DNA of 64,000 bases. Source: an uncultured Candidatus Saccharibacteria bacterium. GTDB taxonomy: Bacteria; Patescibacteriota; Saccharimonadia; Saccharimonadales; Saccharimonadaceae. The notes under the pieces were generated by a model. That model saw only the letters and a program-made list of their open reading frames with translations. It searched no databases and had not been told where the DNA came from. Location: the NCBI GenBank assembly GCA_963538815.1, contig CAUTJK010000002.1, forward strand, positions 17,571-81,570, in the 5' to 3' direction. The position numbers and the translations under genes were made by a program. Position 1 is the first letter of the stretch. Each line of letters opens with the position of its first letter. Below are positions 2,468 to 60,752 of this stretch, in pieces.

Positions 2468-3712
2468 ATGTTAGATATTCGTTATATTCGCGCGCATGCC
2501 GACGAGGTGCAGACAGCAGCGCGCCATAAGGGCTATGAGGTGTCCATCGCTGCGCTTCTCGCGTGCGACGATCAGCGCCGGGAGCTCCAGCAGCGGGTGG
2601 ACGCTGTGCGTACTACGCGCAACGAGACAGCCGCTCAGATGAAGGGCGGCAAACCCAGCCAAGAGCTCATCGCTCAAGGCAAGGCGCTCAAAGCCGAGCT
2701 CGCCACGCTGGAGGAAGAGCTGCGCACCATAGAGAACAACTTTTTTGCTCAGTTAGAAGCAGTGCCAAATATCACCCTGCCAGACGTGCCGCTGGGCGGC
2801 GAGGCAGACAGTGTGGAGGTTAAGCAGTGGGGTGAGCGGCGTGAGTCGGCGCAAGATCACCTCGACTTCGCCACGAGCCGGGGCTGGCTCGACTTCGAGC
2901 GCGGTGCCAAGGTGGCTGGCACGAAGTTTTACTATGTGCTGGGCGACCTCATGCTGCTCGAGAATGCCATCTACCAATATGTCCTTAACTTCCTTGTTGA
3001 CAAAGGCTTCCGCCCCATGACGGTGCCGCATATGGTGAGTGGCCGCGTGGCGCGTGGCTCGGGCTTTGCACCCAAGAGCGATAAGGAGAGTAACGAGTAC
3101 TTTATTGAGGGCGAAGACACTATGCTTATTGGCACAGCCGAGGCCCCACTGACGGGCTTCCATGCCGATGAGATCTTGCATGAGAAAGACCTACCACTGC
3201 TCTACGCAGGCTACAGCCCCTGCTATCGCAAGGAGGCTGGCGCAGCCGGGAAGTTTAGCCGCGGGCTGTTTCGGGTTCATCAGTTTAACAAATTAGAGAT
3301 GTATATCTATTGCTTGCCCAAGCAGTCGGCTCAGATGCACGAGAAAATCCTCGCACTGGAGGAGGAGATTTGGCAAAGCCTCGGTGTGCCGTATCATGTG
3401 GTAAATATCGCGGCGGGAGACCTCGGTGCACCAGCTGCCAAGAAGTATGACATCGAGTATTGGTCGCCCGTTGATGGCGCCTACCGCGAGCTCACCAGCT
3501 GCAGCAACTGCACCGACTTCCAAGCCCGCAATCTCGGCATCCGCGTCCGCCGGGCCGACGGTTCACTTCAGGTGGTACACACCCTCAATGGCACGGCAGT
3601 GAGCTTGGCTCGTGCACTGGTAGCGATTATCGAGAATTATCAAACAACGGATGGCCAGCTCCGCGTGCCAACGGTGCTGCAGCCATATCTGAACAACAGG
3701 GAGGTACTCTAG
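2468..3712 (+). CDS. serS: Serine--tRNA ligase
   Basis: N-terminal coiled-coil arm and class II core motifs (RVHQFNKLEMY, TLNGTAVSLARALVAIIENYQ). Confidence 0.95.
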   Translation: MLDIRYIRAHADEVQTAARHKGYEVSIAALLACDDQRRELQQRVDAVRTTRNETAAQMKGGKPSQELIAQGKALKAELATLEEELRTIENNFFAQLEAVPNITLPDVPLGGEADSVEVKQWGERRESAQDHLDFATSRGWLDFERGAKVAGTKFYYVLGDLMLLENAIYQYVLNFLVDKGFRPMTVPHMVSGRVARGSGFAPKSDKESNEYFIEGEDTMLIGTAEAPLTGFHADEILHEKDLPLLYAGYSPCYRKEAGAAGKFSRGLFRVHQFNKLEMYIYCLPKQSAQMHEKILALEEEIWQSLGVPYHVVNIAAGDLGAPAAKKYDIEYWSPVDGAYRELTSCSNCTDFQARNLGIRVRRADGSLQVVHTLNGTAVSLARALVAIIENYQTTDGQLRVPTVLQPYLNNREVL

Positions 3713-4840
3713 ATGGGGCGCACAATCAGAAAAATGAGCCGCAAAGGCTATGCCAAAGTTGCCAAGCCGTTTCTCTTCCGGCGGCAGCCCGATGCAGCGC
3801 ACCAGTCGATGCTCTGGACGGCGCGGGCACTGCATGCTATTCGGGGTGAGCAGCTCCTTAGTGGCTGGCGCTACAAGAACCCTCGCCTCGAGCAGACTAT
3901 TCTTGGCCTCAACTTTGTTAATCCCATTGGTCTGTCTGCTGGGCTGGATAAAGATTTTGATCTGCCCTCTGTGGCAAAGAAAATTGGTTGCGGCTTTGAG
4001 ATTGGTGGCTCGGTAACGGCCATGCCTTGTGAGGGTAACCCCAAGCCGTGGTTTCGTCGCTTGGCTAGTGAGCAGTCGATCGTCGTCAATGTTGGGTTGG
4101 CCAATCGCGGCGTGGCCAAGGCGATTGAGCAGATCCGCAGCTACTCACCACGGGTCTGGCGCGACTTTCCGCTCAGCGTATCCGTAGCCAAGACAAACAG
4201 CCCCAAGCAAGTCCGCCCCAAGCAAGCAATTGCCGACTACTGCGACAGCCTCCGCCAGCTTGAAGCAGCTGGTTGTGCACCACTGTATGAGATCAATATC
4301 TCGTGCCCCAATGCCTATGGCGGCGAGCCCTTTACCACGCCCGCTCGCCTCAAGAAACTCCTCACTGCGGTGGATGAGCTGAAGCTCTCGCGCCCCGTCT
4401 TTATCAAAATGCCAACGGATAAGACGTGGACGCAGTTTGCCAAGCTCCTCTCCATCATCGACAAGCATAATGTGGCGGGCCTGACGATCGGCAACCTCGT
4501 CAAAGATCGCAGCAAGCTCACTGACCCAAGTGTCTTGCCCGACGATACTCCCGGTAGCCTTAGTGGCCGGCCAGCTCAGGCCATTACCACGCGGCTTATC
4601 CACAAGACGTATGCACTGTATGGTGACCGCTTTGTCATCATTGGTGTGGGCGGTGTCTTTACGGCGGAGGATGCGTACGAGAAGATTCGAGCTGGCGCGA
4701 GCCTCGTCGCGTTGGTGACGGCGCTGATGTTTGAAGGGCCGCAGGTCGTGGGCGACATCAACGAAGGCTTGGTAGAGCTGCTCGACCGGGACGATTACGT
4801 CTCCATTAGCGAAGCAATCGGCGCAGCGCACCGCAAGTAA
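3713..4840 (+). CDS. pyrD: Dihydroorotate dehydrogenase (quinone), class 2-like
   Basis: NPIGLSAGLDKDFD and NISCPNA motifs, GVGGV near the C-terminus. The start abuts the serS stop (TAGATG). Confidence 0.85.
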   Translation: MGRTIRKMSRKGYAKVAKPFLFRRQPDAAHQSMLWTARALHAIRGEQLLSGWRYKNPRLEQTILGLNFVNPIGLSAGLDKDFDLPSVAKKIGCGFEIGGSVTAMPCEGNPKPWFRRLASEQSIVVNVGLANRGVAKAIEQIRSYSPRVWRDFPLSVSVAKTNSPKQVRPKQAIADYCDSLRQLEAAGCAPLYEINISCPNAYGGEPFTTPARLKKLLTAVDELKLSRPVFIKMPTDKTWTQFAKLLSIIDKHNVAGLTIGNLVKDRSKLTDPSVLPDDTPGSLSGRPAQAITTRLIHKTYALYGDRFVIIGVGGVFTAEDAYEKIRAGASLVALVTALMFEGPQVVGDINEGLVELLDRDDYVSISEAIGAAHRK

Positions 4841-11347: not shown

Positions 11348-11566
11348 ATGAGCACTGAGGCTCAGTTGGACATCGATCAGTATGGTTTTAATCCAGACGA
11401 CATGCCCGATTGCTTTCTCCCCGATAACTTTGACGAAATATTTCAGCGTATCGGTATACATGGCACAAGGCATAGCGTGCTAGTTTCTCAGTTTACTCTA
11501 GCCTATAACATACAGCCGACCATAAACGGTCGGCTGTATGTGTTGGTTGTGCGTTTGCGCTTTTAG
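11348..11566 (+). CDS. Doubtful small ORF
   Basis: ORF only. Its 3' end contains a perfect 14-bp terminator hairpin, which argues against coding. Confidence 0.25.
   Translation: MSTEAQLDIDQYGFNPDDMPDCFLPDNFDEIFQRIGIHGTRHSVLVSQFTLAYNIQPTINGRLYVLVVRLRF
11508..11541. terminator. Bidirectional hairpin terminator between convergent genes
   Basis: ACATACAGCCGACC / GGTCGGCTGTATGT perfect 14-bp stem with a 6-nt loop. Confidence 0.75.
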
Positions 11567-20659: not shown

Positions 20660-20699
20660 TGGTTTACCCTGTTTTTTCCCTGTTAGCGTGGGTTCTTTT

Positions 20700-21010
20700 T
20701 TCTCTTCTTTTATATATTTATATATAATAGGAGAGAAATCGATATGGATGGATATGGATATATAAAGATAGAGGATAGAGATAAATAGAGAAATAGAAAG
20801 AATAAGTAAATAGAGATAAAAATAAAGATAAATAGATAAAGAAATATAAAGATAAGGAAATGGATAAATAGAGATAGAGAAAGATAAAGAGATAGATATG
20901 AGTATAGAAATAGATATAGATATAGATAGAGATAGAGAAATATAGAGAAAGAGATGCATAGAGATAGAAAAGGAGAATATATGAAGATAGATATAAAAGA
21001 AATAACTGAA
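20700..21010. repeat. Cytosine-depleted GATA/AGATA/ATAGAGA low-complexity tract
   Basis: By eye only about 2 C in ~260 nt of the + strand and about 30 GATA occurrences. A 60-nt polypyrimidine run precedes it at 20575-20635. Confidence 0.9.
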
Positions 21011-31126: not shown

Positions 31127-31515
31127 CGCAATCGCCACCGCGGGTGTTGGTCATCGACGATGATCAATGGTTTGCTGAGCTGCAGCTTGCGGCAGTGCAG
31201 CGGGCTGGTATGGTGCCTGTCTATGCGGCCGATGTGCTGGCTGGCATGGCAGCGCTCGACGAGGCACTCCCAGCAGTGATCATCCTCGATATGTTCATGC
31301 CAGGGGGTAATGGCCTGGTGCTGCTTCACGAGCTGCAATCGTATAGCGACACGGCACGCATCCCCATCATCATCTGTAGTAATAATGCGAGTGACATGAC
31401 CTTGGCCGATCTTGCTCCCTACGGTGTGGTGGCCTTGCTAGACAAAACAACGATGCGCCCCAGCGACGTGACGAACTTACTACGCAGGTACATCCCAAGC
31501 GAGGTAATCGCATGA
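31123..31515 (+). CDS. Single-domain response regulator (receiver only)
   Basis: RVLVIDDD...AVIILDMFMPGGNG...ICS...K pattern; ATGA overlap with the kinase stop. Confidence 0.85.
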   Translation: MTQSPPRVLVIDDDQWFAELQLAAVQRAGMVPVYAADVLAGMAALDEALPAVIILDMFMPGGNGLVLLHELQSYSDTARIPIIICSNNASDMTLADLAPYGVVALLDKTTMRPSDVTNLLRRYIPSEVIA

Positions 31516-32186
31516 GTATGCAGCGCACCACAGCGATCGTCCTGCGCCGCACCAACTATGGCGAGGCCGACCGCGTGCTGCAATTGCTCACGCCAGAGGG
31601 GCAGCGGGCGGTGATCGCCAAGGGTGTCCGGCGCGAGAAGAGTCGGCTGGCTGGGGCGGTTGAACTCTTTGCGATTAGCGATGTCGTCATCCGCCAGGGG
31701 CGCAGTGAGCTGGGCGTGCTAACACAGGCTCGCCTAACGAAGTATTATCAAACCATCGTGGCCGATTATGACCGCCTACAAGCTGGCTATGCCGCCATCC
31801 AGTTGGTGGCGCAGGCCAGCCGTATGCTGGACGAGCCGGCGTGGTATGAGGTACTGCGCTTGGTATATGAGGGGCTCAATCAGCCTAGCGTACCCGTCAT
31901 GCTTACTCAAGCCTGGCTAGCCACCCACTATGCGGCACTGCAGGGCTACGAGCTGAACCTACTGCGCGACGTCGTAGGCCAGCCCCTCCAGCCCGAGCGG
32001 CGGTATATGTACGATGGGTCAGAACGGGGCCTGCGCCTGAGCGACCAAGGCGACATCACCGCAGCGCACATCAAGCTGCTCCGCCTACTGGCAACGCGCC
32101 CACCCACGGTGGTAGCACAGGTCGGTGGCGTGCTAGCCATCCTGCCCGAATGCTGGCTGGTGGCACGGCAGCATGCTGGGGTGTAG
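31512..32186 (+). CDS. recO: DNA repair protein RecO
   Basis: N-terminal OB pattern AIVLRRTNYGEADRVLQLLTPEGQR; ATGA overlap with the upstream regulator. Confidence 0.9.
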   Translation: MSMQRTTAIVLRRTNYGEADRVLQLLTPEGQRAVIAKGVRREKSRLAGAVELFAISDVVIRQGRSELGVLTQARLTKYYQTIVADYDRLQAGYAAIQLVAQASRMLDEPAWYEVLRLVYEGLNQPSVPVMLTQAWLATHYAALQGYELNLLRDVVGQPLQPERRYMYDGSERGLRLSDQGDITAAHIKLLRLLATRPPTVVAQVGGVLAILPECWLVARQHAGV

Positions 32187-32189
32187 CTG

Positions 32190-32305
32190 CAGTACAGTAT
32201 ACATGCCGAACAAGAAAATATCTGGAGGCCAGTGACTAAGCAAATGGATGAGCTCTGTATATATTCTGGCCGGAACATTTTCGGTTTGATGTGTATACTG
32301 TACTG
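32190..32305 (+). repeat. Hairpin-closed ~113-nt conserved element, copy A (candidate structured RNA)
   Basis: An ~84-nt core is ~87% identical to 59018-59101. The closing stem CAGTACAGTATACAT/ATGTGTATACTGTACTG is unique to this copy. Confidence 0.8.
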
Positions 32306-32440
32306 TTTTATCATCCACCCGATGAAGAACGTACCCACCTCAAGAAATGCTATAATAAAACTAAAGAACCAATCATGAAGCTGCCGCGTTGCCAACGCGG
32401 AGAAAGGACGCGTGTGAGTAGCGCAACGAGCAACGTAACA

Positions 32441-33772
32441 ATGGAAGCAATTATCAGCCTATGCAAGCGCCGCGGCTTTATTTATCAGGGGTCGGACGTG
32501 TACGGCGGCCTGAGTGGCACATGGGATTATGGCCCGCTAGGCGTGCAGCTCAAACACAATATTATGAACCTATGGTGGCGCAGATTCGTCGATGAGCGTG
32601 ATGACATGTATGGCGTCGATGCGGCGATTTTGATGAATCAGAAAGTGTGGAAGGCCAGTGGGCATGTCGATACCTTCGTCGATCCGCTGTGCGAAGACAC
32701 GGTCAATCACCGCCGCTACCGCACTGACCATATCCTCAAAGACAATGGTGTTGACGCCGATGGTATGACGATGGAGCAGATGGATGCGGTGATTGCCGAA
32801 CAAGGCATTAAAAGTCCCGATGGCAACTCGCTGAGCACATCGCGGACGTTTAACATGATGTTCAAAACCCACGTTGGCGCGACCGAGAGTGAGGATAGCA
32901 TCAGCTACCTGCGCCCCGAAACCGCTCAAGGCATCTTCACCAATTTCAAAAACGTCGTCGATAGTTTTTATCCGAACTTGCCGTTTGGTATCGCTCAGCA
33001 GGGTAAAGCGTTTCGTAATGAAATTGCGCCGCGCGATTTCGTCTTCCGCTCTCGGGAGTTTGAGCAGATGGAGATTGAATATTTCGTCGATCCTGAGCAT
33101 TGGCAGGAGGCGTTTGATGAGCTGCTGGCGGCGACGCATGCGTTTTTGGCAGAGCTAGGTTTGAAGCCAGAGCATATCCACGAGCTGGACGTGCCGGCGG
33201 AGGATCGGGCGCACTACAGCAAAAAGACGATCGACATCGAATACGACTATCCGATCGGTCGCGAAGAGCTGATGGGCATCGCCTACCGGACCGATTTTGA
33301 CCTGATGAACATCCAGCGCGCCAGTGGTAAGAGCATGGAGTATACCGTCAAGGGGACGAACACAAAATTTGTTCCGCACGTCATCGAGCCGTCGTTTGGT
33401 GTCGAGCGGGCGCTGATGGCAGTGCTGGCCAGTAGCTACCGCGAGGACGAGCAAAATGGCGAAAAGCGGGTGTATTTGGCGTTGCCAGAGCATTTGGCGC
33501 CAGTTAAATTTGCCGTTTCACCGCTACTCAAAAATAAGCCAGAATTGGTAGAAAAAGCCCGCGAAGTCTACGCCCAGCTCGCCAAAGCTAACCCTGGCCG
33601 AGTGATGTGGGATGACAACGGTAACATCGGCAAACGCTACCGCCGCCAAGACGAAATCGGCACCCCGCACTGCGTAGTCATCGACTTCCAGACGCTGGAG
33701 GACGGTACGGTGACGGTACGTGAGCGAGATACGACGGAGCAGAGGCGGGTTGTCGTCGATAAGCTAGTATAG
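32441..33772 (+). CDS. glyQS: Glycine--tRNA ligase (dimeric class II type); N-terminus ambiguous (ATG 32441, GTG 32414 or ATG 32375)
   Basis: LCKRRGFIYQGSDVYGGLSGTWDYGPLG, FRNEIAPR, anticodon-binding C-terminus. Confidence 0.9.
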   Translation: MEAIISLCKRRGFIYQGSDVYGGLSGTWDYGPLGVQLKHNIMNLWWRRFVDERDDMYGVDAAILMNQKVWKASGHVDTFVDPLCEDTVNHRRYRTDHILKDNGVDADGMTMEQMDAVIAEQGIKSPDGNSLSTSRTFNMMFKTHVGATESEDSISYLRPETAQGIFTNFKNVVDSFYPNLPFGIAQQGKAFRNEIAPRDFVFRSREFEQMEIEYFVDPEHWQEAFDELLAATHAFLAELGLKPEHIHELDVPAEDRAHYSKKTIDIEYDYPIGREELMGIAYRTDFDLMNIQRASGKSMEYTVKGTNTKFVPHVIEPSFGVERALMAVLASSYREDEQNGEKRVYLALPEHLAPVKFAVSPLLKNKPELVEKAREVYAQLAKANPGRVMWDDNGNIGKRYRRQDEIGTPHCVVIDFQTLEDGTVTVRERDTTEQRRVVVDKLV

Positions 33773-38051: not shown

Positions 38052-39512
38052 ATGAGGGAACTCAGGCAAGCAAAGTATAATAAATGGAGAACGCTCGCTC
38101 GCGTGTCTCAGGCTGGGTGCCTCGTGGCGGTAGCCGCTATGGTGGCACTGTTTGCCCAGCCTACACGGGCTGCCCAAGAGGTAGCTTGGAAGGAGCAAGC
38201 TGGCTCTGGTGTAAAGAACTGGTCGGCAATGGCTGGCTCGACAGACGGCACCAAGCTCGTTGCAGCAGTGAATGTCGGGAATATCTACACCTCGACAGAC
38301 AGCGGTGTCACCTGGATGGAACGACCAATAACCGGCCTTCCTGCGCCGCAAAAGTGGACGGCTCTTGCCAGCTCGGCTGATGGTAGTAAGATCGCTGCCT
38401 TTTACCAATGGGGTGGCTACATGTACACTTCGAATGACTCAGGTGCTACCTGGACGAAAAATGGTCTCCCAGGAGCTGCTGGTGACTGGGTGTCTGTGAC
38501 GAGCTCGGCCGATGGCACCAAGCTCGCTGCTGTGGCAACCAACCGTGGGGTATTTACCTCTACCAACTCTGGCGCAAGCTGGAAAGAGCAAGCCAACCCA
38601 GGTGCGAAGAAGTGGACATCGATCGCCGGCTCGGCTGATGGCACCAAGCTTGCCGCGACTGTTGCCGACGGTGTTGTCTACACCTCGACAGACAGCGGTG
38701 TCACCTGGACAGAGCAAGCAGCCGCTGGCACTCAGAAGTGGACATCAATCGCTAGCTCGGCCGATGGTATGAAGCTCGCTGCAACCGTCAATGGTGGCAA
38801 GATTCACACCTCGACAGACGGCGGTGTTACTTGGAAAGAGCAAGCTGCATCAACCCCACAGAAGTGGACATCAATCGCTAGCTCGGCCGATGGTATGAAG
38901 CTCGCTGCAACCGTCAATGGTGGCAAGATCTACACTTCAGATGACGGTGGTGCAACCTGGATGGAAAATGACAGCGCTGCTACCGGTGCGTGGTCGGCTG
39001 TTGTTATGTCGAACGACGGGGCCAACCTCGCTGCAGCACTCAACGGCGGCAACATTAACACAGCAACAGCTAAGGACAAGCCAGTTGTGCAGCCAGCTCC
39101 GGCCAACCCAGCGCCCGCAAATCCTGCGCCTGCCAACCCAGCTCCGGCGACACCTGCGCCCGCAAATCCAGCGCCAGCTACACCCGCTCCGGCCACCCCT
39201 GCGCCCGCAACCCCAGCACCAGCTACCCCGGCACCTGCCAATCCGGCACCTGCTACACCCGCGCCTGCAAATCCAGCCCCAGCTGAGCCAGCCGTAGAAC
39301 CTGCACCAGCAGAAGAGCCGGCTCCGGCTGCAGAGCAAGCACCAGCAGCCAACCCAGCACCTGCAGCTAAACCAGCAGAGGCTGCCGCTCCTGCTAAGCA
39401 AGAAGGTCCAGCTCTCGCTGACACTGGTGACAGTGTATGGCTCGTTGCTGCACTCGCAGCCAGTGGTCTTGGCGCCGGAAGCTTCTGGTTCGTCAAGAGC
39501 CGCAAGAACTAG
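38052..39512 (+). CDS. Cell-surface BNR/Asp-box beta-propeller protein with Pro/Ala linker and LAxTG sorting signal
   Basis: AAAGGAGGG RBS and a signal peptide. Seven or more S-x-D-x-G-x-T-W blades. The C-terminus is LADTG plus a hydrophobic helix plus KSRKN. Confidence 0.85.
   Translation: MRELRQAKYNKWRTLARVSQAGCLVAVAAMVALFAQPTRAAQEVAWKEQAGSGVKNWSAMAGSTDGTKLVAAVNVGNIYTSTDSGVTWMERPITGLPAPQKWTALASSADGSKIAAFYQWGGYMYTSNDSGATWTKNGLPGAAGDWVSVTSSADGTKLAAVATNRGVFTSTNSGASWKEQANPGAKKWTSIAGSADGTKLAATVADGVVYTSTDSGVTWTEQAAAGTQKWTSIASSADGMKLAATVNGGKIHTSTDGGVTWKEQAASTPQKWTSIASSADGMKLAATVNGGKIYTSDDGGATWMENDSAATGAWSAVVMSNDGANLAAALNGGNINTATAKDKPVVQPAPANPAPANPAPANPAPATPAPANPAPATPAPATPAPATPAPATPAPANPAPATPAPANPAPAEPAVEPAPAEEPAPAAEQAPAANPAPAAKPAEAAAPAKQEGPALADTGDSVWLVAALAASGLGAGSFWFVKSRKN
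38733..38929 (+). repeat. Perfect 71-nt direct repeat at 126-nt (one propeller blade) spacing
   Basis: 38733-38803 equals 38859-38929 (CAGAAGTGGACATCAATCGCTAGCTCGGCCGATGGTATGAAGCTCGCTGCAACCGTCAATGGTGGCAAGAT). Confidence 0.9.
39094..39390 (+). repeat. PAPAN/PAPAT-coding tandem repeat (Pro/Ala-rich stalk)
   Basis: Reiterated CCAGC.CC.GC.AA(T/C)CC units encoding PAPANPAPATPAPA... Confidence 0.85.
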
Positions 39513-39541
39513 AGCACTGCACTGCAGCGTCTCTATACCCA

Positions 39542-39577
39542 AGAGAAAGGCATACCGTATGCCTTTCTCTTTTTTTG
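39542..39577 (+). terminator. Rho-independent terminator
   Basis: AGAGAAAGGCATAC / GTATGCCTTTCTCT stem followed by TTTTTTT. Confidence 0.85.
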
Positions 39578-40177: not shown

Positions 40178-42874
40178 CTACGAGCGCCGCCTGCGGAGTA
40201 TCCACACCCCGCCGCTGCCTAGCGCAATTGCAGCGAGGACAGTGGGGAGGAGGCTGTCGCCAGTGTTGGCGAGGAGGCCACTAGGGCGCGATGAGTTGCT
40301 GGTAGAGCCAGTGTGCGATGTATCTTCGTAGATGGCGATGGGGTCGAGGATCGTGCCGTTGGCAGTGCCATCTTCGTCACCAAAGCCGCCGTCGGTCACA
40401 TCGTAGGCAATTGTTGTGCGTGTGCCGCTGGGGTTTGTACCAAAGTTGATCCGGCTTGTGATATCTTCGATGACTGAGCCGCCTTTGGCCAGCTTGAGCA
40501 CGGTGAGGCGGCTTGGGTCGCGGTGGTGCTGGCTTAGTGTGAGTGCTACATGGGTGGTGTAGCCAGTGTGAGCGGTCTGCCCAGCACAGGTGATGGTGAA
40601 GCGCACGCTGTTGCGCAGAACCCGGCCTTGGTACTGCGCGGGGGCGGTTGCTGGCTCGGCTGAGGCAATGTGGCTGCACGGTTTGCCGGCCGTAGCGAGC
40701 GATACCGCACCGCCGTGTGGCTGGGTAATGGTAGTTGAGTTGGTCGGCTGATTTGGCTGCGTGGGCTGCTTGGGTGTTGGTGTGGATGGGGCTGATGTGA
40801 TGGCGTTAAGCCGAGCCTGGAGAGCGGCTTGTTTGCGTGCATCCTTGACGGCCGCAATGCGGGCTTGAGCAGCAGCAATATCTGCAGGGCTCTTGCTGGC
40901 TTCGGCTCGGGCCACAGCAGCTTCGGCAGCGGCCAGTGTGCGATCATCTACCGGTGGAGTGGTGGTATATATCATGCCACCGTAGGCAGCAGCTATCAGC
41001 TTGCTCCCATCGGTCGAGCTGGCAAGGGCTGACCAGTTGGGCACGCCAGGAGACGTCTGAGCTACCCACGTTGTGCCGCCGTCGGTCGATACGTAGATAT
41101 AACCACCACCGCCAGCTGTTGCAGCGAGGGTGTCGCCATCGGCCGAGATGGTTGCCGCTGTCCAGTTGTGCCGGCCGTCCACACTGCGCTCCGTCCATGT
41201 CACGCCACCATTGGTCGAGATGTAGACGTTACCACCAGCAGCTGTTGCGACGAGCTTTGTGCCATCGGGCGAGCTGGCAATTGATGTCCAGGTGCGGCTG
41301 CCAGCTTGGGTGCGTTCTGTCCAGGTCTTGCCGCCGTCTAAGGAGGTATAGATAGCACCGCCTTCGACGACTGCAGCTAGTTTGTTGCCATCAGCCGAGC
41401 TTGTGACGGCGCGCCATTTGCGGCTGCCCGACTTTGGCTGCTCCGTCCAGGTTGCACCGCCATCGCGCGAGGTGTAGATAACGTGATCCTTGGCGACAGC
41501 CACCAGCTTATTACCATCAGCCGAGCTCGCGATCGACATCCAGTTGATCGAGCCACTCATCGCGTGCTTGCGCCACGTTGCACCGCCGTCTTGCGATGTC
41601 ATGATGTAGCCGCCCCAGTCGTAGAGTGCCGCAATCTTGCTCCCATCGGCCGAGCTCGCGATGCTCACCCAGTTGCGCACCTCAGACTTTGGTTGCTCCG
41701 TCCAGGTCGCGCCACCGTCGCGAGAGGTGTGGATTGTGCCACCCCAGGCGGCAGCTGCAATCTTGCTCCCGTCGGTCGAGCTGGCAAGGGCCGACCATTT
41801 GCGGTCGCCTGCAGCATCATGCTTAGCCCATTTCGTGCCAGTTGCTGGCACTGGCGTCTCGGGTGGCTGCGTGCCCGCACCCTTTTGGAAGACACGCACA
41901 TAGTCGATCAGCATCGTCTGGGTGGGGAATGGCTCGGATGGGTCGATAGGGCTGAGATTTTTGCTAATCTCGACGTAGTCATTGAGGATGAATTGCCAGC
42001 CGCGGTGGAATGCACCATTAATATTCTCTTGGCTGGCGACCTTCGTCAGTGGTTCGGCATCCGTCCTGGGGAGGATGTTGCCATCGTCGGTAGGGCTCAC
42101 ATGGTAGCGATATACCTTGATGGGTTGGTCGTCTACAAAGTACTTGACCGTCGTACCATCATACTCAACGGCCCAGGTGTGCCACTCGTAGGCAAACGAG
42201 CCTGGCCGCGCACCGGCATAGTGCTCGCCACTGTGCGAGAGGGAGCGTGTCCGCCAGCCGGTCTTCCATTTGCCATCGGCACCGTGGTGGTAGCACGACA
42301 TGTGTGTGGTGGACCACGCGTAATTTGGTGTGGATGAATACCACTCGATGATGTCTAGCTCACCGTATGGGTCGTTGGCCTTGGGGTTGTCGTTGCAGTT
42401 TTGGAGCGTATTGCCACTCACCATCCACAGCGATGGCCGTGTGCCACGCTTGCCATTCCAATTAAACTTTGCCCGAATCTCGGCTCGGAATGGCTTGGTG
42501 CCGTCCACAACCTTGCCCTTGTTTTTGACCCGTCCACTAAGGTAGCGGGTTGTGGTGCCGCTGGGGCAGGGCTGCTCACTCATGTTGGCACTGGTAAGCG
42601 GCTCGCTGAGGTTGCTCACGCAGTGGCGCTGCGTGGTGATCTCGAGGTGGCTGTTGGCAACCTTGAGATTGTTTGGGCTGTAGGCGAGGTGCGTATTGCG
42701 CAGATTATCAGTATTTTGCTTGAGTATATCCCACTCGCCAGACACAGCCGAGCCAGTAAACTCATCGTGCCACACCATACCCCACTGGTCGGCATGCGTT
42801 GTGCCATGATAGAGAAGTGCAAGCAACACAACACTACCAAGTGCCGCAAGCACAATAATTGCTTTTTTTATCAC
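40178..42874 (-). CDS. Secreted GH16 glycoside hydrolase fused to BNR/Asp-box propeller, Ala-rich linker, C-terminal domain and LAxTG sorting signal (start GTG 42874 or ATG 42916)
   Basis: Signal peptide IKKAIIVLAALGSVVLLALL and GH16 catalytic motif GELDIIEW. Repeated S/T-x-DGG-x-TW blades. The C-terminus is LANTG plus a hydrophobic helix plus RRRRS. Confidence 0.85.
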   Translation of the reverse strand: MIKKAIIVLAALGSVVLLALLYHGTTHADQWGMVWHDEFTGSAVSGEWDILKQNTDNLRNTHLAYSPNNLKVANSHLEITTQRHCVSNLSEPLTSANMSEQPCPSGTTTRYLSGRVKNKGKVVDGTKPFRAEIRAKFNWNGKRGTRPSLWMVSGNTLQNCNDNPKANDPYGELDIIEWYSSTPNYAWSTTHMSCYHHGADGKWKTGWRTRSLSHSGEHYAGARPGSFAYEWHTWAVEYDGTTVKYFVDDQPIKVYRYHVSPTDDGNILPRTDAEPLTKVASQENINGAFHRGWQFILNDYVEISKNLSPIDPSEPFPTQTMLIDYVRVFQKGAGTQPPETPVPATGTKWAKHDAAGDRKWSALASSTDGSKIAAAAWGGTIHTSRDGGATWTEQPKSEVRNWVSIASSADGSKIAALYDWGGYIMTSQDGGATWRKHAMSGSINWMSIASSADGNKLVAVAKDHVIYTSRDGGATWTEQPKSGSRKWRAVTSSADGNKLAAVVEGGAIYTSLDGGKTWTERTQAGSRTWTSIASSPDGTKLVATAAGGNVYISTNGGVTWTERSVDGRHNWTAATISADGDTLAATAGGGGYIYVSTDGGTTWVAQTSPGVPNWSALASSTDGSKLIAAAYGGMIYTTTPPVDDRTLAAAEAAVARAEASKSPADIAAAQARIAAVKDARKQAALQARLNAITSAPSTPTPKQPTQPNQPTNSTTITQPHGGAVSLATAGKPCSHIASAEPATAPAQYQGRVLRNSVRFTITCAGQTAHTGYTTHVALTLSQHHRDPSRLTVLKLAKGGSVIEDITSRINFGTNPSGTRTTIAYDVTDGGFGDEDGTANGTILDPIAIYEDTSHTGSTSNSSRPSGLLANTGDSLLPTVLAAIALGSGGVWILRRRRS

Positions 42875-53371: not shown

Positions 53372-53385
53372 ATTACCAATATCAC

Positions 53386-53550
53386 TAATATCCAGAGTGC
53401 GACGAGGGACTGGCCCGATGACTCGCCAGCAACCTGCCCAGGAAGTGAGCAAGGTGCTAATTCCAGCCTGTGCGCAGGGAAGATATGAGATACATAAGAG
53501 CATAGCTCCGTTCTCGCCTGGCAGTGCAGGATAAGAGAAGGGAGTTTTTT
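53386..53550 (+). promoter_or_regulatory. SAM-I (S-box) riboswitch with terminator/SD-sequestering expression platform
   Basis: The aptamer matches the S-box consensus: AUAUCCAGAG...GAGGGACUGGCCCGAUGA...CAGCAACC...GGUGCUAAUUCCAGC...GAAGAUAU. The platform stem CTCCGTTCTC/GAGAAGGGAG plus T6 (53506-53550) contains the SD. Confidence 0.85.
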
Positions 53551-57859: not shown

Positions 57860-58975
57860 ATGCATAACCAACCAAACACACAAACCCCCACCACCGATAC
57901 CACCCCAGTAACGTCACCAGAGCTAGCTGCTGCGCCGCAGAGTGATGCAGACGTAGCCACTCATGCCGAGACTCAGCCAACTAATACTACCGCTCAGCCC
58001 GCTGCTGACACGGCTGGCGATACTACCGACATCTTCCTCTGGGCCAATCAAGCCGACCGCGACAAAGACCAGCTGGAGGTGGATCTCTTCCTCTTTACCA
58101 AGGGTTATACGGTGTACGCCACTAACTATGCAGCTGAGCTCAAGGCGCAGCTCAAGGTGCTCTTCCTCTACGATATGATCACGGCGGTGCAGACAGGTGC
58201 AGCGACTGGCCTGATGGTGCGGGACTTCGAGGCAGCCAAGGCGGAGGAGAATGTCCTCGAGCGCACCACGCTCGACCGGGTAGTGCATGCTCAGGAAGTC
58301 ATCGAGCAGATCACCTACAGCGAGGCAGATCTCGAGACCTTCAACGAAGGCGACCATGAATTCAAGAAGGTTAAGGGTATCATTGCGCGCTTCCGGATGG
58401 GTACGGATGGCGAGCCATTCTTCGTGGCCAAGCTGCTACCCCAGTCGCAGGTGCTCAAGGGGGCAACCGCCTGGATGTACAGTGGTGGGTCGTTCCAGCC
58501 ATTTGTGGCTGATGCGGGCTTGCGCATTACGCCGGATAATCAGGTGCTGATCGTCGGCAACGATATCTTTGCCTTTAGCGAGAGTAAATTCGTCCGGCTC
58601 TTTGGCTACGATGCCAAAAAGCACGCTGTGGCGGAGGAGAAGATCGCTGCCATCACGCAGCAGTTTAAGCTTACCTTACCTGAGGGGCTCACGCTCGACC
58701 GCCTGGTGCGCGACACGCCAGCGCTGGTGACCAAACTGCAAAAGCTTGATCCCGCCCAAGTGACACAAGATCAACTCGTCGACCACGCGGACGAAATGGG
58801 CCTGGGTCTGATGACGGACGACGCGGCAGAGAGCATCATTATCATGGACGCCAAGGATGCAGCCGTCTTCGTCAATCTCCTCAACGACGACTACGTCACG
58901 AGCGACCTGACCGGCGTCAAATACGAAATGCGCGGCAAGAAGATCTTGCGCGAGAATGAGCAATTGCCAGAGTAG
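57860..58975 (+). CDS. Hypothetical protein (possible DUF4868/KwaB-like; unverified)
   Basis: TAGAAT ends 7 nt before the ATG. Thr/Pro-rich N-terminus. The C-terminal LLNDDYVTSDLTGVKYEMRGKKI resembles my recollection of DUF4868 C-termini. Confidence 0.6.
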   Translation: MHNQPNTQTPTTDTTPVTSPELAAAPQSDADVATHAETQPTNTTAQPAADTAGDTTDIFLWANQADRDKDQLEVDLFLFTKGYTVYATNYAAELKAQLKVLFLYDMITAVQTGAATGLMVRDFEAAKAEENVLERTTLDRVVHAQEVIEQITYSEADLETFNEGDHEFKKVKGIIARFRMGTDGEPFFVAKLLPQSQVLKGATAWMYSGGSFQPFVADAGLRITPDNQVLIVGNDIFAFSESKFVRLFGYDAKKHAVAEEKIAAITQQFKLTLPEGLTLDRLVRDTPALVTKLQKLDPAQVTQDQLVDHADEMGLGLMTDDAAESIIIMDAKDAAVFVNLLNDDYVTSDLTGVKYEMRGKKILRENEQLPE

Positions 58976-58998: not shown

Positions 58999-59113
58999 GC
59001 TAGTATCATGCTATTGGACAAGAAAATATCTGGAGGCCAGCGACCAAGCAAGCGGGAGAGCTCTGTTATATCATCTGGCCGGAACATTTTCGGTTCGATG
59101 GCATGATACTAGC
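58999..59113 (+). repeat. Hairpin-closed ~113-nt conserved element, copy B (candidate structured RNA)
   Basis: The core matches copy A. The closing stem GCTAGTATCATGC/GGCATGATACTAGC is unique to this copy. Confidence 0.8.
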
Positions 59114-59179
59114 CTCTGAGGTAGCCGCTCGTGATAACTGCATCCACCCAATGTTCTATTTTTCTTAATCCTCTGCTGA

Positions 59180-59188
59180 TGGTACAAT
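59180..59188 (+). promoter_or_regulatory. Extended -10 box (TGGTACAAT) 8 nt upstream of the GH1 ATG
   Basis: The -10 ends at 59188 and the ATG is at 59196. Confidence 0.5.
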
Positions 59189-59195
59189 AAGCATT

Positions 59196-60752
59196 ATGGC
59201 TAAGCAACAATCTACGGTGCAATTTCCAAAACATTTCCTCTGGGGCGCTGCCACGAGCGCGCATCAGGTCGAGGGTGGTATGCACAACCAGTGGTCGGAG
59301 TGGGAAAAAGCTCAGGCCAAGACCCTCGCTGCTCAGAGCCAATATCAATATGGCGACTTGCCCAACTGGTCGCACATTGCCAGTGCCGCCAAAGATCCAA
59401 ACAATTATATCTCGGGCAAAGCTGCCAACCACGCCGAGCTCTACACGCAAGACTTCGCCCTGGCCAAGAAGATGGGCCTCACCTCGTGGCGCTTTAGTGT
59501 GGAGTGGTCGCGCATCGAGCCAGAAGAGGGTGCGTGGAATGCCGAGGCGATCAAATATTACAAGGCGTACTTGGCTGCCCTAGCCGATGCTGGGCTAGAG
59601 CCCGTCGTGACGCTGTTTCACTTCACCCTGCCGGTGTGGTTTGCCGCCCGTGGGGGCTTTGCCAAGCGCGATAATGTGAAGTATTTCGTGCGCTTTGTCG
59701 ATAAGTTGATGGATGAGATTGGCGCCACAGTGCGCTACGTCATTACCATCAACGAGCCGTGTGTCTACGTGACGGAGAGCTACTATAACGGCACTTGGCC
59801 GCCCAATGTGCGCAGCAAGTGGCAAACCTACCGCGTGCTGAGCAACCTTGCCTACGCGCACAACCAAGTAGCCAAAGTCCTCCACGCCAAGAGCCGACGC
59901 TTCAAGGTGGCAGTGGCCAAGAATTCAGCCTACACCTACCCGGGCGACGACGCCTGGCTTAGCCGAGCGACAGCGCGGGTGGTGCAGTTCTTCCAGGATG
60001 ATTATTTCCTGCGCAAGGTGGTGCGGCAGAGCGACTACATTGCCGTTAATTATTACTTTAGTAATCGTATCTATGGCTATCGCATCCACAATCCCGAGAC
60101 GACGCCAAATGATCTCGGCTGGACGATGCAGCCCGATCATCTCGAGCTTGCACTGGAGCGTCTCTGGGGCCGCTACAAGCTGCCTCTGCTCGTGACGGAG
60201 AACGGCGTGGCCGACGAGCGCGACCAGTTCCGCAAGCAATGGCTCACTCAGTCTATCCTTGCTATGCAGCGCGCCCTTGGTAGTGGAGTAGAGCTGCTGG
60301 GGTATATGCACTGGAGCTTCCTCGATAACTTCGAGTGGGATAAAGGGTTTTGGCCGCGCTTTGGCCTCTTTGCGGTCGACTACAAGACGTATAAGCGGAC
60401 ACCGCGCCCCAGTGCGCTATGGTTTGCTCGCGTATTGCAGCAGCAGAAGAAACAGGCAGAGCAGCCCATCGAACCACTGCCGTCTGTACCAGCCCGCAAG
60501 AAACCAGCCAAGCCAGCTGCTGCACAAGCTCAGGCCAAACCTACGTCATCAGCGTCTTCATCGCCGCGCTCTGTTCGCTCTACGCCAGCCGTGCCACCCA
60601 AACCGACGCCGCCGACGCCACCGCAAACACCCCAAATGCCACCATCTACACCAGGGCCAGCGGCACGCTCTAGCGGGGTGATTACACCGCCGCGCCGGCC
60701 AGCAGTTGCATCACGCAGTCGTTCACGTAGTCATAATAATTGGGAGGAATAA
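59196..60752 (+). CDS. GH1 beta-glucosidase with ~110-aa Pro-rich basic C-terminal tail
   Basis: FLWGAATSAHQVEG, acid/base ITINEP, nucleophile VTENG. Confidence 0.9.
   Translation: MAKQQSTVQFPKHFLWGAATSAHQVEGGMHNQWSEWEKAQAKTLAAQSQYQYGDLPNWSHIASAAKDPNNYISGKAANHAELYTQDFALAKKMGLTSWRFSVEWSRIEPEEGAWNAEAIKYYKAYLAALADAGLEPVVTLFHFTLPVWFAARGGFAKRDNVKYFVRFVDKLMDEIGATVRYVITINEPCVYVTESYYNGTWPPNVRSKWQTYRVLSNLAYAHNQVAKVLHAKSRRFKVAVAKNSAYTYPGDDAWLSRATARVVQFFQDDYFLRKVVRQSDYIAVNYYFSNRIYGYRIHNPETTPNDLGWTMQPDHLELALERLWGRYKLPLLVTENGVADERDQFRKQWLTQSILAMQRALGSGVELLGYMHWSFLDNFEWDKGFWPRFGLFAVDYKTYKRTPRPSALWFARVLQQQKKQAEQPIEPLPSVPARKKPAKPAAAQAQAKPTSSASSSPRSVRSTPAVPPKPTPPTPPQTPQMPPSTPGPAARSSGVITPPRRPAVASRSRSRSHNNWEE

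Follow-up and report, generated by a model that had tools for sequence, protein, structure and literature searches.

An apparently undescribed family of hairpin elements with conserved cores and locus-specific closing stems in oral Saccharibacteria

The window analyzed here, a 64,000-nt stretch of DNA from an uncultured Candidatus Saccharibacteria bacterium (contig CAUTJK010000002.1), contains two intergenic copies of a hairpin element, 27 kb apart and both on the plus strand. Copy A (116 nt, 32190–32305) starts 3 nt past the recO stop codon (32186) and is separated by 43 nt from an extended -10 promoter of the downstream glyQS; this promoter-like sequence, TGCTATAAT (32348–32356, plus strand), is a consensus match only, and its location downstream of copy A positions the copy upstream of the glyQS transcription unit. 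Copy B (115 nt, 58999–59113) starts 23 nt past the stop codon (58975) of a KwaB-like gene and lies 66 nt from the extended -10 promoter-like TGGTACAAT (59180–59188, plus strand) of the downstream GH1 beta-glucosidase gene, a sequence that is kept in species without the element. A covariance model trained on 55 family members scored copy A at 121.1 bits (E = 9.5e-33) and copy B at 123.5 bits (E = 1.8e-33). Both lie at the positions given in a first-pass annotation of this DNA. In an unfiltered search of the window with the model only copies A and B were recovered, the next score being 13 bits, and a fuzzy pattern search of the window found none beyond these two.

Both copies share one plan. In copy A, a locus-specific closing stem is formed by a left arm (CAGTACAGTATACATGCCGAAC, 32190–32211) and its partner right arm (32284–32305; GTTTGATGTGTATACTGTACTG, then TTTTAT), and it encloses a conserved left core arm (AAGAAAATATCTGGAGGCCAG, 32212–32232), a semi-variable apical tip of 32 nt (32233–32264) and a conserved right core arm (TCTGGCCGGAACATTTTCGG, 32265–32284). 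The corresponding parts of copy B are the closing stem arms GCTAGTATCATGCTATTGGAC (58999–59019) and GTTCGATGGCATGATACTAGC (59093–59113), core arms identified by pattern match at 59020–59040 and 59074–59093, and a tip of 33 nt (59041–59073), all on the plus strand. Within the tip, a CGG that is nearly invariant across the family reads TGG in copy A. The 21-nt left arm AAGAAAATATCTGGAGGCCAG is found at 32212–32232 and 59020–59040 and the right arm, as TCTGGCCGGAACATTTTCGGTT, at 32265–32286 and 59074–59095; each has exactly two occurrences in the window, even at a tolerance of 3 mismatches, and shuffled sequences are expected to give 0.

The first-pass annotation had described a core about 87% identical between the copies, with about 11 differences, and the measured identity is close to this (88% over 49 nt and 91% over 34 nt, with one indel). 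As it had claimed, outer ends from different copies are unrelated, and those of the same copy pair perfectly, over 14 bp in copy A (CAGTACAGTATACA/TGTATACTGTACTG) and 13 bp in copy B (GCTAGTATCATGC/GCATGATACTAGC). With the inner flanks included, the proposed closing helix of about 20 bp measures 22 bp in copy A, with one C-A mismatch and G-U pairs, and 21 bp in copy B. The minimum free energy of copy A (116 nt, plus strand) is -43.7 kcal/mol, compared to -24.2 +/- 3.2 kcal/mol for shuffled sequences (z = -6.1). Of the two internal pairings suggested, GGCCAG/CUGGCC is present in the consensus fold, and the local CCGGAA/TTTCGG hairpin is replaced there by pairing of GAAAAU with AUUUUC and of UCU with GGA.

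The element belongs to a family that extends well outside the window. More than 116 stretches carry it and, among the matches listed, all are from Candidatus Saccharibacteria MAGs. Single genomes contain several copies, with at least seven loci in one MAG; these copy numbers, from a pattern scan of one genome per species, are lower bounds. About 160 copies were recovered with the covariance model, and they fall into roughly 20 orthologous groups, each at the same site in several species. Copy A has orthologues in L009, L017, L025, L089, L090 and L109, and copy B in L063, L100 and L101, with truncated versions in L124/L125. The family unit is a rod-like hairpin of 115–135 nt. In its core of ~82 nt, two arms of invariant sequence, slightly asymmetric and carrying small internal loops, flank a semi-variable tip of 32–34 nt; the core is closed by a helix of 20–28 bp whose sequence is specific to each locus, giving about 20 unrelated stem types. 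The arms, spaced 33 bp apart, are imperfect inverted repeats of each other, both carrying GAAAAT..CTGG..CCAG, and each can form a small local hairpin. A conserved interior with unrelated, complementary ends, the architecture first proposed from two copies, is valid in about 150.

Elements of the family are intergenic and lie near the ends of unrelated housekeeping genes (recO/glyQS, KwaB-like/GH1, priA/def, fmt, nrdA/nrdF, proS, xerC/ndk, thrS and recJ). At copies A and B, as well as several other loci, an extended -10 motif is found between the element and the next gene. Raw counts of orientation relative to the flanking genes were 49 co-directional, 38 antisense, 23 divergent and 4 convergent, and the core strand was distributed 62:87 with respect to local GC skew, with no link to the replication strand. 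Orientation is independent of both transcription and GC skew. Copies A and B are members of an apparently undescribed family of ~130-base hairpins in oral Saccharibacteria (TM7), and full-text literature searches on repeats or structured RNAs of Saccharibacteria, Patescibacteria and TM7x turned up no account of it.

Several known categories were tested and set aside. At gathering thresholds, Rfam 15 matched the whole window only at a SAM riboswitch (53385–53489), and at E up to 10 both copies gave only chance-level matches, outside the element or at its edge; no family was matched, in line with the first-pass annotation. Its argument that the element is not a classical MITE also stands: the ends are locus-specific, the conserved arms are internal, and target-site duplications are absent. 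The arms can be read as terminal repeats of an 82-nt core, yet complementary flank runs beyond them. A terminator scan found no intrinsic terminator at A or B, and the stems are not G+C-rich; between the two copies only A has a U tract (TTTT), and most locus types lack an adjacent T run. An integron attC site is suggested by ..GAAC/GTT.. at the core-stem junction, but complementarity continues 15–20 bp further and the copies are single and dispersed. A small ORF or type I toxin was considered on account of a 48-aa GTG ORF (32232–32378) over copy A; copy B has GCG and no counterpart, and tip length differences that are not multiples of 3 speak against an ORF. No sigma-70-like site was found within the core, which speaks against an internal or invertible promoter. 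A TAnnnT-like run before CTGGCC is semi-conserved only and without a -35 partner. Resemblances by eye to a K-turn, SRP-like RNA, the tRNA T-arm, attC and Chi-like sequences were also discarded, since none fits all copies.

Comparison of orthologues reveals where the constraint lies. Pairwise divergence per site was 0.95% in the left arm and 0.67% in the right arm, compared to 7.9% in the tip, 7.4–9.7% in the stems and 7–8% in the flanks, so that the arms are held roughly ten times tighter than their surroundings (7–10%). Core sequence is invariant even within helices. The core helices of intact copies never covary, and covariation therefore gives no proof of core pairing.

In the closing stems, complementarity is maintained while sequence changes. 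Across the consensus fold, both sides have changed in 19 of 34 pairs, and 95.7% of cells are paired, compared to 79.7% in shuffles and 29–45% when the partners are slid. Within orthologous groups, whose copies are not phylogenetically independent (as also applies to the G-U/A-C and strand-stability counts below), there were only 11 clear compensatory changes, such as the T-A to C-G change via a U-G intermediate in the stem orthologues of copy A (L009/L090, L017/L109). Single-sided changes in the same groups left 75 G-U, 41 A-C and 40 other mismatch states; in the outer stems only, the excess was modest (44 G-U to 28 A-C). At fixed positions the G-U:A-C counts were 32:13 in co-directional, 27:19 in antisense and 13:13 in divergent copies, and fixed-position and per-group counts give about 1.8:1; fixed positions are preferred, because a helix-extension rule inflates the count (246:55). 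Stems folded at -32.8 kcal/mol on the core strand and -28.1 kcal/mol on the opposite strand, with the core strand favored in 90 copies and the opposite strand in 21. An excess of G-U over A-C and more stable stems on the core strand favor a single-stranded fold of that strand.

These data bear on the earlier suggestion that selection acts on an RNA or ssDNA fold and that covariation is its signature. The first part gains support from the wobble excess and the better folding of the core strand. The second is weakened, since most both-sided change is found between paralogous loci with wholly different stems, where a DNA palindrome would look alike. DNA palindrome dynamics could explain part of the pairing and wobble pattern, and the perfect outer stems, the flips and the 'compensatory' changes can also arise from DNA-level palindrome recombination or templated correction alone. 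Taken as a whole, the earlier interpretation is partly supported. The combination of a conserved core with differing stems suggests a functional RNA or DNA module.

The preferred explanation for these interspersed palindromic repeats, which is tentative, is that the units, lying at transcription-unit boundaries, are transcribed and fold as an RNA rod with a docking core. The elements would be transcribed together with their neighbors, or by read-through or antisense transcription, and in RNA each would fold into a long rod. Its generic stem of at least 20 bp may act as a 3’-end, processing or stability hairpin, with a length that suits RNase III-type enzymes, and the invariant core may be a docking site for a putative sequence-specific factor. 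The family would evolve as units are duplicated or deleted, as hairpins trade cores by gene conversion or by recombination through their arms, and as segments invert via the stem arms. Membership in the family, its build, the conservation pattern, the genomic setting, the flips and the lack of hairpins at empty sites are observed; that the elements are transcribed, work as RNA and have a binding partner is inferred. With orientation mixed, read-through at many loci would yield RNA that contains the core in reverse complement, and elements flanked by divergent genes may go untranscribed altogether.

Much of the family's behavior is that of a repeat. A mainly selfish DNA element is a possible but less probable explanation. 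The ~82-nt core would then be a non-autonomous mobile unit, with the arms as imperfect terminal inverted repeats recognized by a transposase, a tyrosine/HUH recombinase or a homing enzyme encoded elsewhere; it would move or copy into palindromic DNA, or create the palindrome, leaving the hairpin as a by-product, and the arms would be conserved through recognition in trans together with gene conversion. Consistent with this are the many copies beside unrelated genes, the mutually imperfect inverted arms, and orientations independent of transcription and GC skew. At five or more loci the core and inner stem are inverted at the same site in different species, the flipped segment being bounded by the inverted-repeat stem arms. 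Related species differ by insertion or deletion of the element, and cores appear to have been exchanged between stems: near-identical tips, with their arms, are found in unrelated stems, and several different tips occur in a single stem type. Some copies are decayed or truncated, one (L079) is chimeric, and one contig terminates within a copy. Arm conservation does not follow from such mobility, as long-resident orthologous copies have preserved the arms about tenfold better than the flanking sequence, whereas an immobile selfish copy should decay, and since the tips are not homogenized, broad gene conversion fails to explain the identity of the arms. Target-site duplications are missing, as the longest direct repeats at the hairpin base of 75 loci were no commoner than in shuffled flank pairings. 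Scans and BLAST of viral contigs, phages and plasmids found no related sequence (an 18-mer match within a phage coding region lacks the left arm and is due to chance), and no longer 'master' element was seen. Finally, a mechanism acting on double-stranded DNA does not predict better stem folding on one strand.

Unrelated outer stems could also result if the core had inserted into the loops of long hairpins already present between genes, for instance terminator-like stems, and this would account for the differences in stem between loci. The window does contain perfect hairpins of similar stem length without the core (11508–11541, and 39538–39571 with a U tract), copy A's stem is followed by TTTT, and one core subtype occurs in unrelated stems. 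We nevertheless regard this origin as improbable. Related species without the element have only short spacers at the A locus (L129, L130/131) and the B locus (L117, L120, L122, L127), none with a long-stem hairpin and L130/131 with merely a 5-bp stem. Among 16 metagenome contigs with the left stem of type t1a, all 16 also carry the core and none has the stem around a small loop (<=30 nt). The similarity of paralogues fades gradually outward into the stem, with no sharp stop at the core edge. About 13 bp of inner stem are common to copy A's type and type t5a, and most stems have no U tract.

A binding site in double-stranded or cruciform DNA for a chromosomal protein, with a role in nucleoid organization, recombination, replication or segregation and the arms as a bipartite palindromic site, has similarly little likelihood. 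It would fit the independence from gene orientation, the tolerance of flips, the invariance of core sequence even in helices, and the dispersal of intergenic copies, including copies flanked by divergent genes, which are doubtfully transcribed. It gives no reason, however, for an additional 20–28 bp of free-sequence complementarity or for the bias of G-U over A-C, and the lack of a link to GC skew (62 vs 87) and the asymmetry of the arms and their 33-bp separation also argue against it. Least probable is a family of stand-alone small RNA genes or of cis regulators resembling riboswitches. The predicted fold is strong, and aptamers and ribozymes typically have a conserved core with a variable closing helix. 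However, neither inside nor outside the element was a shared promoter or terminator found, the flanks are locus-specific, Rfam gives no match even at E up to 10, and the neighbors have no common function. Multiple copies in mixed orientation (co-directional, antisense, divergent and convergent), with same-locus flips, decay, indels and core exchange, do not support a discrete regulatory RNA gene, riboswitch or cis-regulatory leader.

Similarities to known repeats place the family more precisely. ERIC/IRU elements of enterobacteria and vibrios (~127-bp imperfect palindromes) are alike in size, long hairpin and tens of copies, and are also intergenic near gene ends, in either orientation, and present or absent at a locus between relatives; depending on their orientation, ERIC hairpins in RNA alter how stable the flanking mRNA is. 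ERIC, however, is conserved over its full length, termini included, and has been likened to a MITE with TA duplications, whereas in the present family the center alone is conserved, the terminal 20–28 bp are locus-specific, there are no duplications and no sequence similarity, and the phylum is another. Correia elements (CREE/NEMIS) of Neisseria are likewise short palindromic intergenic repeats (100–160 bp) and are co-transcribed, and their hairpins are processed by RNase III and change the expression of neighboring genes. Features of Correia elements that are not seen here are conserved terminal inverted repeats of 26 bp, duplication of a TA target, an IHF site and a copy number in the hundreds. 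REP/REPIN sequences with RAYT transposases resemble the family in placing two conserved, inverted short sequences around a less conserved spacer in a hairpin, but have no additional locus-specific complementary flanks, usually number in the hundreds, carry a GTAG-type 5’ motif and co-occur with the RAYT gene.

An invariant internal-loop core closed by a free-sequence helix is also the form of riboswitches and ribozymes. A typical riboswitch P1 has 4–8 bp, compared to the nearly perfect 20–28-bp closing helix here, and the present family, unlike riboswitches, is multi-copy, flips, has no constant orientation or gene association, and has no Rfam match. Segments bounded by inverted repeats and present in both orientations at one locus are known from hairpin-loop inversions and invertons; in the present family no promoter was detected in the invertible part and the flips were seen between species, and, as every locus has its own inverted repeats, they are unlikely to be the substrate of a site-specific invertase. 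The family is a new set of interspersed palindromic repeats with an unusual build, in which the center is constrained and the ends are free.

Beyond the tentatively favored transcribed rod lies a stronger proposal, which we consider somewhat unlikely, that the Candidate Phyla Radiation (CPR) has a new functional nucleic-acid module, in which a generic helix of at least 20 bp presents an invariant, asymmetric core with internal loops that a dedicated factor reads on one strand (RNA or ssDNA). Such a factor might read a processing, termination or decay signal, or the element might serve as a protein sponge or scaffold; alternatively, the core might be a new self-cleaving motif. If true, some 20 or more operon boundaries of a reduced ~1-Mb genome would have retained the module in dozens of species, and the flipping and swapping of cores between hairpins would be a loop-cassette form of mobility with no described counterpart among other bacterial repeats.

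Ultrasmall and living as episymbionts, Saccharibacteria have genomes of about 1 Mb, which a TM7x transcriptome paper describes as densely coded and without validated small RNAs. In genomes this small and densely coded, the upkeep of many ~130-nt elements is unexpected. The family also has practical consequences: it marks operon boundaries, it breaks assemblies, as the contig that ends within a copy illustrates, it can cause rearrangements, as the chimeric and truncated copies indicate, and it provides a lineage-specific sequence marker for this oral TM7 group. Classical bacterial repeats and MITEs are built the other way round: here the center is constrained and the ends are free but complementary, and an account of how units reach new sites, invert and swap cores could uncover a repeat dynamic of a new kind. 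Saccharibacteria are naturally competent (Cell 2023, PMC10633639), and because genetic tools now exist for them, the function of the family is testable. That the core evolves about ten times slower than the adjacent DNA in dozens of species points to RNA or DNA biology not yet recognized in the Candidate Phyla Radiation.

The first-pass annotation had described an element occurring twice in the window, with a conserved core and complementary ends unrelated between the copies, and its positions, identity and helices were borne out. Copy A (32190-32305, + strand) and copy B (58999-59113, + strand), delimited by reading the sequence, each carry a left arm, AAGAAAATATCTGGAGGCCAG (A 32212-32232; B 59020-59040, +), and a right arm, TCTGGCCGGAACATTTTCGG (A 32265-32284; B 59074-59093, +), located by fuzzy pattern search on either side of an apical tip of 32 nt in A and 33 nt in B. 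Each arm has exactly two matches in the window at up to three mismatches, where shuffles expect none, and a repeat finder aligned A to B with 88% of positions identical over 49 nt and 91% over 34 nt. The outer 13-14 nt of A show no relation to those of B, and inside each copy they are perfectly complementary; with the inner flanks the closing helix reaches 22 bp in A and 21 bp in B. Minimum free energy for copy A was -43.7 kcal/mol (z = -6.1 against shuffles), and the window has a G+C content of 54%. Copy A is intergenic between recO (31512-32186, +) and glyQS, and copy B separates a DUF4868/KwaB-like gene (57860-58975, +) from a GH1 beta-glucosidase gene (59196-60752, +). The KwaB-like gene, directly 5' of copy B, matches Pfam PF16162 (DUF4868, Kiwa anti-phage system), and the order KwaB-like, GH1 beta-glucosidase, CofD-like gene is kept in other Saccharibacteria.

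The window also holds plain hairpins lacking the conserved core: perfect 14-bp stems at 11508-11541 and at 39538-39571, the latter followed by a U tract and resembling a classical terminator, and an interrupted A+T-rich stem at 20699-20738. This last adjoins a purine-rich, very A+T-rich tract (20690-20965, G+C about 0.2) with degenerate AGATA/GATAAA-type repeats. Tandem repeats, presumably coding, occur at 38161-39057 (126-nt units), 39093-39287 (15-nt units that would give Pro/Ala-rich pentapeptides) and 40964-41814 (126/255-nt units with a common CCATCGG.CGAGCT core).

Scanning one genome per species across bacteria and archaea with the pattern TCTGGAGGCCAG N{15,45} TCTGGCCGGAAC returned at least 116 stretches, in many cases several to a MAG, with both strands represented. 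Among the matches listed, the hosts were Candidatus Saccharibacteria or Nanosynbacter MAGs only, which indicates that the window derives from such a genome. A covariance model built on 55 diverse copies found A and B as its sole matches in the window and about 160 copies in loci fetched from other Saccharibacteria genomes; around 25 of these have arm substitutions, and several are decayed or truncated. Searches of viral contigs, phage records and plasmid records gave no related sequence, and a full-text literature search turned up no account of the family.

The consensus fold is a rod: variable stem - AC [AA] GAAAAU [A] UCU [GGA] GGCCAG - tip - CUGGCC GGA [AC] AUUUUC [G] GU - variable stem. 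Beyond the conserved AC/GU pair, gapless flank pairing averages about 22 bp (maximum 33 bp), in stems whose sequence differs from locus to locus. Since the inner 8-12 bp are semi-conserved (e.g., GTNYGGTGAG on the right side), similarity between loci fades gradually outward with no sharp end. The tip has no uniform fold, carries a nearly invariant CGG and frequently forms a small hairpin around GCGGAnnA.

Constraint on the arms, as judged from sequence comparison, argues most strongly for a functional element, or at least a functional core, over a merely decaying insertion. In orthologous sets (same flanks and orientation, different species; copies found by a tolerant pattern allowing up to four substitutions per arm), mean pairwise divergence per site was 0.95% in the left arm and 0.67% in the right, against 7.9% in the tip, 9.7% and 7.4% in the left and right stems, and 8.0% and 7.0% in the two flanks. 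The arms are thus kept roughly ten times tighter than their surroundings, and the stems change at the background rate while retaining pairing.

Among the 55 sequences, paired cells made up 95.7%, compared to 79.7% in shuffles and 29-45% with slid partners, and the innermost 15 core pairs did not vary at all. The earlier claim of covariation stands insofar as 19 of the 34 consensus pairs changed on both sides, but part of this may be palindrome mechanics. An initial tally of G-U against A-C (246:55) was biased by the rule for ending helices; at fixed positions in unique stems the ratio was 32:13 for copies co-directional with neighboring genes, 27:19 for antisense copies and 13:13 for those between divergent genes. 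When a state was scored a single time for every position in an orthologous group, the totals were 75 G-U, 41 A-C and 40 other mismatches, with 11 compensatory Watson-Crick exchanges within groups. Placed on a neutral loop, stems folded better on the core strand (the strand reading left arm, tip, right arm) than on its opposite (-32.8 vs -28.1 kcal/mol; 90 copies vs 21), as did the outer 16 bp alone (-18.5 vs -17.4; 65 copies vs 44). In copy A orthologues, CAGTAC/GTACTG passes through CAGTAC/GTGCTG, with a U-G pair, to CAGCAC/GTGCTG, and at another locus three A-to-G changes each yield a G-U pair. Taken together, the G-U excess, the better folding and these cases favor a single-stranded fold of the core strand, a moderate signal from counts that are not phylogenetically independent.

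By raw counts, 49 copies were co-directional with their flanking genes and 38 antisense; another 23 were flanked by divergent genes and 4 by convergent ones. Orientation did not correspond to local GC skew (62 vs 87). Scans of the element and its edges gave nothing resembling a promoter or terminator, except for a TTTT after copy A. At A, B and several other loci, an extended -10 motif (TGnTAnAAT) separates the element from the gene that follows, so that the element comes after one transcription unit has ended and before the next one's promoter. An exact 9-mer, CATCCACCC, occurs 3' of both copies (32312-32320 and 59141-59149, +), 36-39 nt upstream of the extended -10 (TGCTATAAT, 32348-32356; TGGTACAAT, 59180-59188), and is marginally enriched in the window (25 one-mismatch matches vs 15.5 expected). 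At other loci CATCCACC[AC] lies 45-70 nt from elements; the motif may be promoter-associated or a piece of a larger inserted unit. The glyQS leader contains a hairpin (32386-32402, +; CCGCGTT-GCC-AACGCGG) leading into the conserved GGAGAAAGG, and the relative L129 has compensatory changes on both sides (CCATGTT-GCC-AACATGG). This small structure may occlude the ribosome-binding site, and translation of glyQS probably begins at the GTG at 32414 rather than at the ATG at 32441.

In-place arm conservation, maintained pairing, strand asymmetry and position at transcription-unit boundaries lead us to favor, tentatively, a transcribed hairpin. Its generic helix of at least 20 bp would supply a 3'-end, processing or stability structure, and its invariant, asymmetric core would be the recognition site for a putative factor.

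The main alternative, which we consider rather unlikely yet a serious contender, is that the element is mainly selfish DNA, with arms recognized by a recombinase or transposase encoded elsewhere. It accounts well for flips, exchanges and polymorphism, but poorly for in-place conservation and strand asymmetry. At five or more locus types (copies grouped by stem and flanks), different species carry the core in opposite orientations between the same flanking genes, with inversion breakpoints in the outer stem arms because the conserved inner right stem GTTTGGTGAGCT moves with the core. One copy (L079:3324-3452, -) is a chimera whose left and right halves come from two different locus types. In organisms closely related to that of the window (KwaB-like protein 95% identical; L124 and L125:4161-4241), the 3' half of copy B is swapped for about 230 nt of other sequence; the right-hand junction in L124 coincides with the CATCCACCC/CATCCACC motif. 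One contig (L126) ends inside an element. The family promotes rearrangements and breaks assemblies. The check for a MITE found no target-site duplications at the hairpin bases. Two same-subfamily elements in inverted orientation (L015:48-104, +, and 4425-4481, -), sharing the inner stem ATTGCCAGAC / GTCTGGTGAT, bracket nrdA-nrdF and could allow inversion of the whole operon. Elsewhere, an intact and a truncated copy overlap head-to-head (L049:3022-3150, +, and 3131-3256, -), which suggests nested or adjacent insertion or inter-copy recombination.

Near-identical tips sit inside unrelated stems (copy A type, t4, t5a), stem type t1a carries three tip types, and at locus t5 the tips differ between its two orientations. 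Such mixing indicates core exchange between hairpins or gene conversion spreading from the arms. The copy A type and t5a have 13 bp of inner stem and about 75% of the outer stem in common, suggesting whole-hairpin duplication or long conversion tracts. A more unusual option appears unlikely, though not far-fetched: a new functional module of RNA or ssDNA, or mobility of a loop-cassette kind.

That the core was inserted into pre-existing hairpins is improbable. Species with a 76-80% identical KwaB-like protein retain the KwaB-GH1 order with 29-46 nt from stop codon to ATG, no hairpin and a conserved promoter (TGGTACAAT or TGATATAAT); compared to one such locus (L127), the window has about 180 extra bases, comprising 23 nt, the 115-nt element and about 44 nt. 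At locus A, L129 and L130/131 (GlyRS 96% identical) have the glyQS promoter and leader almost directly after the recO stop, with no long hairpin. The core accompanied the t1a left stem in 16 of 16 metagenome contigs, and none had t1a stems closing a loop of at most 30 nt. Judging by these empty sites and contigs, the stems do not resemble terminator hairpins that were already in place before an insert arrived. Stem and core come and go as one unit. Telling gain from loss would take a phylogeny, and long palindromes are readily deleted.

A double-stranded DNA or cruciform protein site has similarly poor prospects, the strand evidence favoring a single-stranded fold. Least probable is a stand-alone sRNA or riboswitch: neither copy matched an Rfam family, and the unrelated housekeeping neighbors (recO, glyQS, priA, def, fmt, nrdA, nrdF, proS, xerC-like, ndk, thrS, recJ, pilin genes, a glycosyltransferase and others) rule out a riboswitch-type gene association. 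According to a TM7x transcriptome preprint, small RNAs have not been validated in TM7x. The sole Rfam family over its gathering score in the window is a SAM-I riboswitch aptamer (RF00162; 53385-53489, +; 75.3 bits, E 7.6e-16).

The data fit a family of lineage-specific interspersed palindromic repeats, closest in kind to ERIC/IRU, Correia and REPIN elements; in contrast to these, the constraint is reversed, with an invariant center and free complementary ends. The element itself is genuine and occurs widely in an enigmatic phylum; it is under strong constraint and has an atypical structure, and its proposed function is putative.
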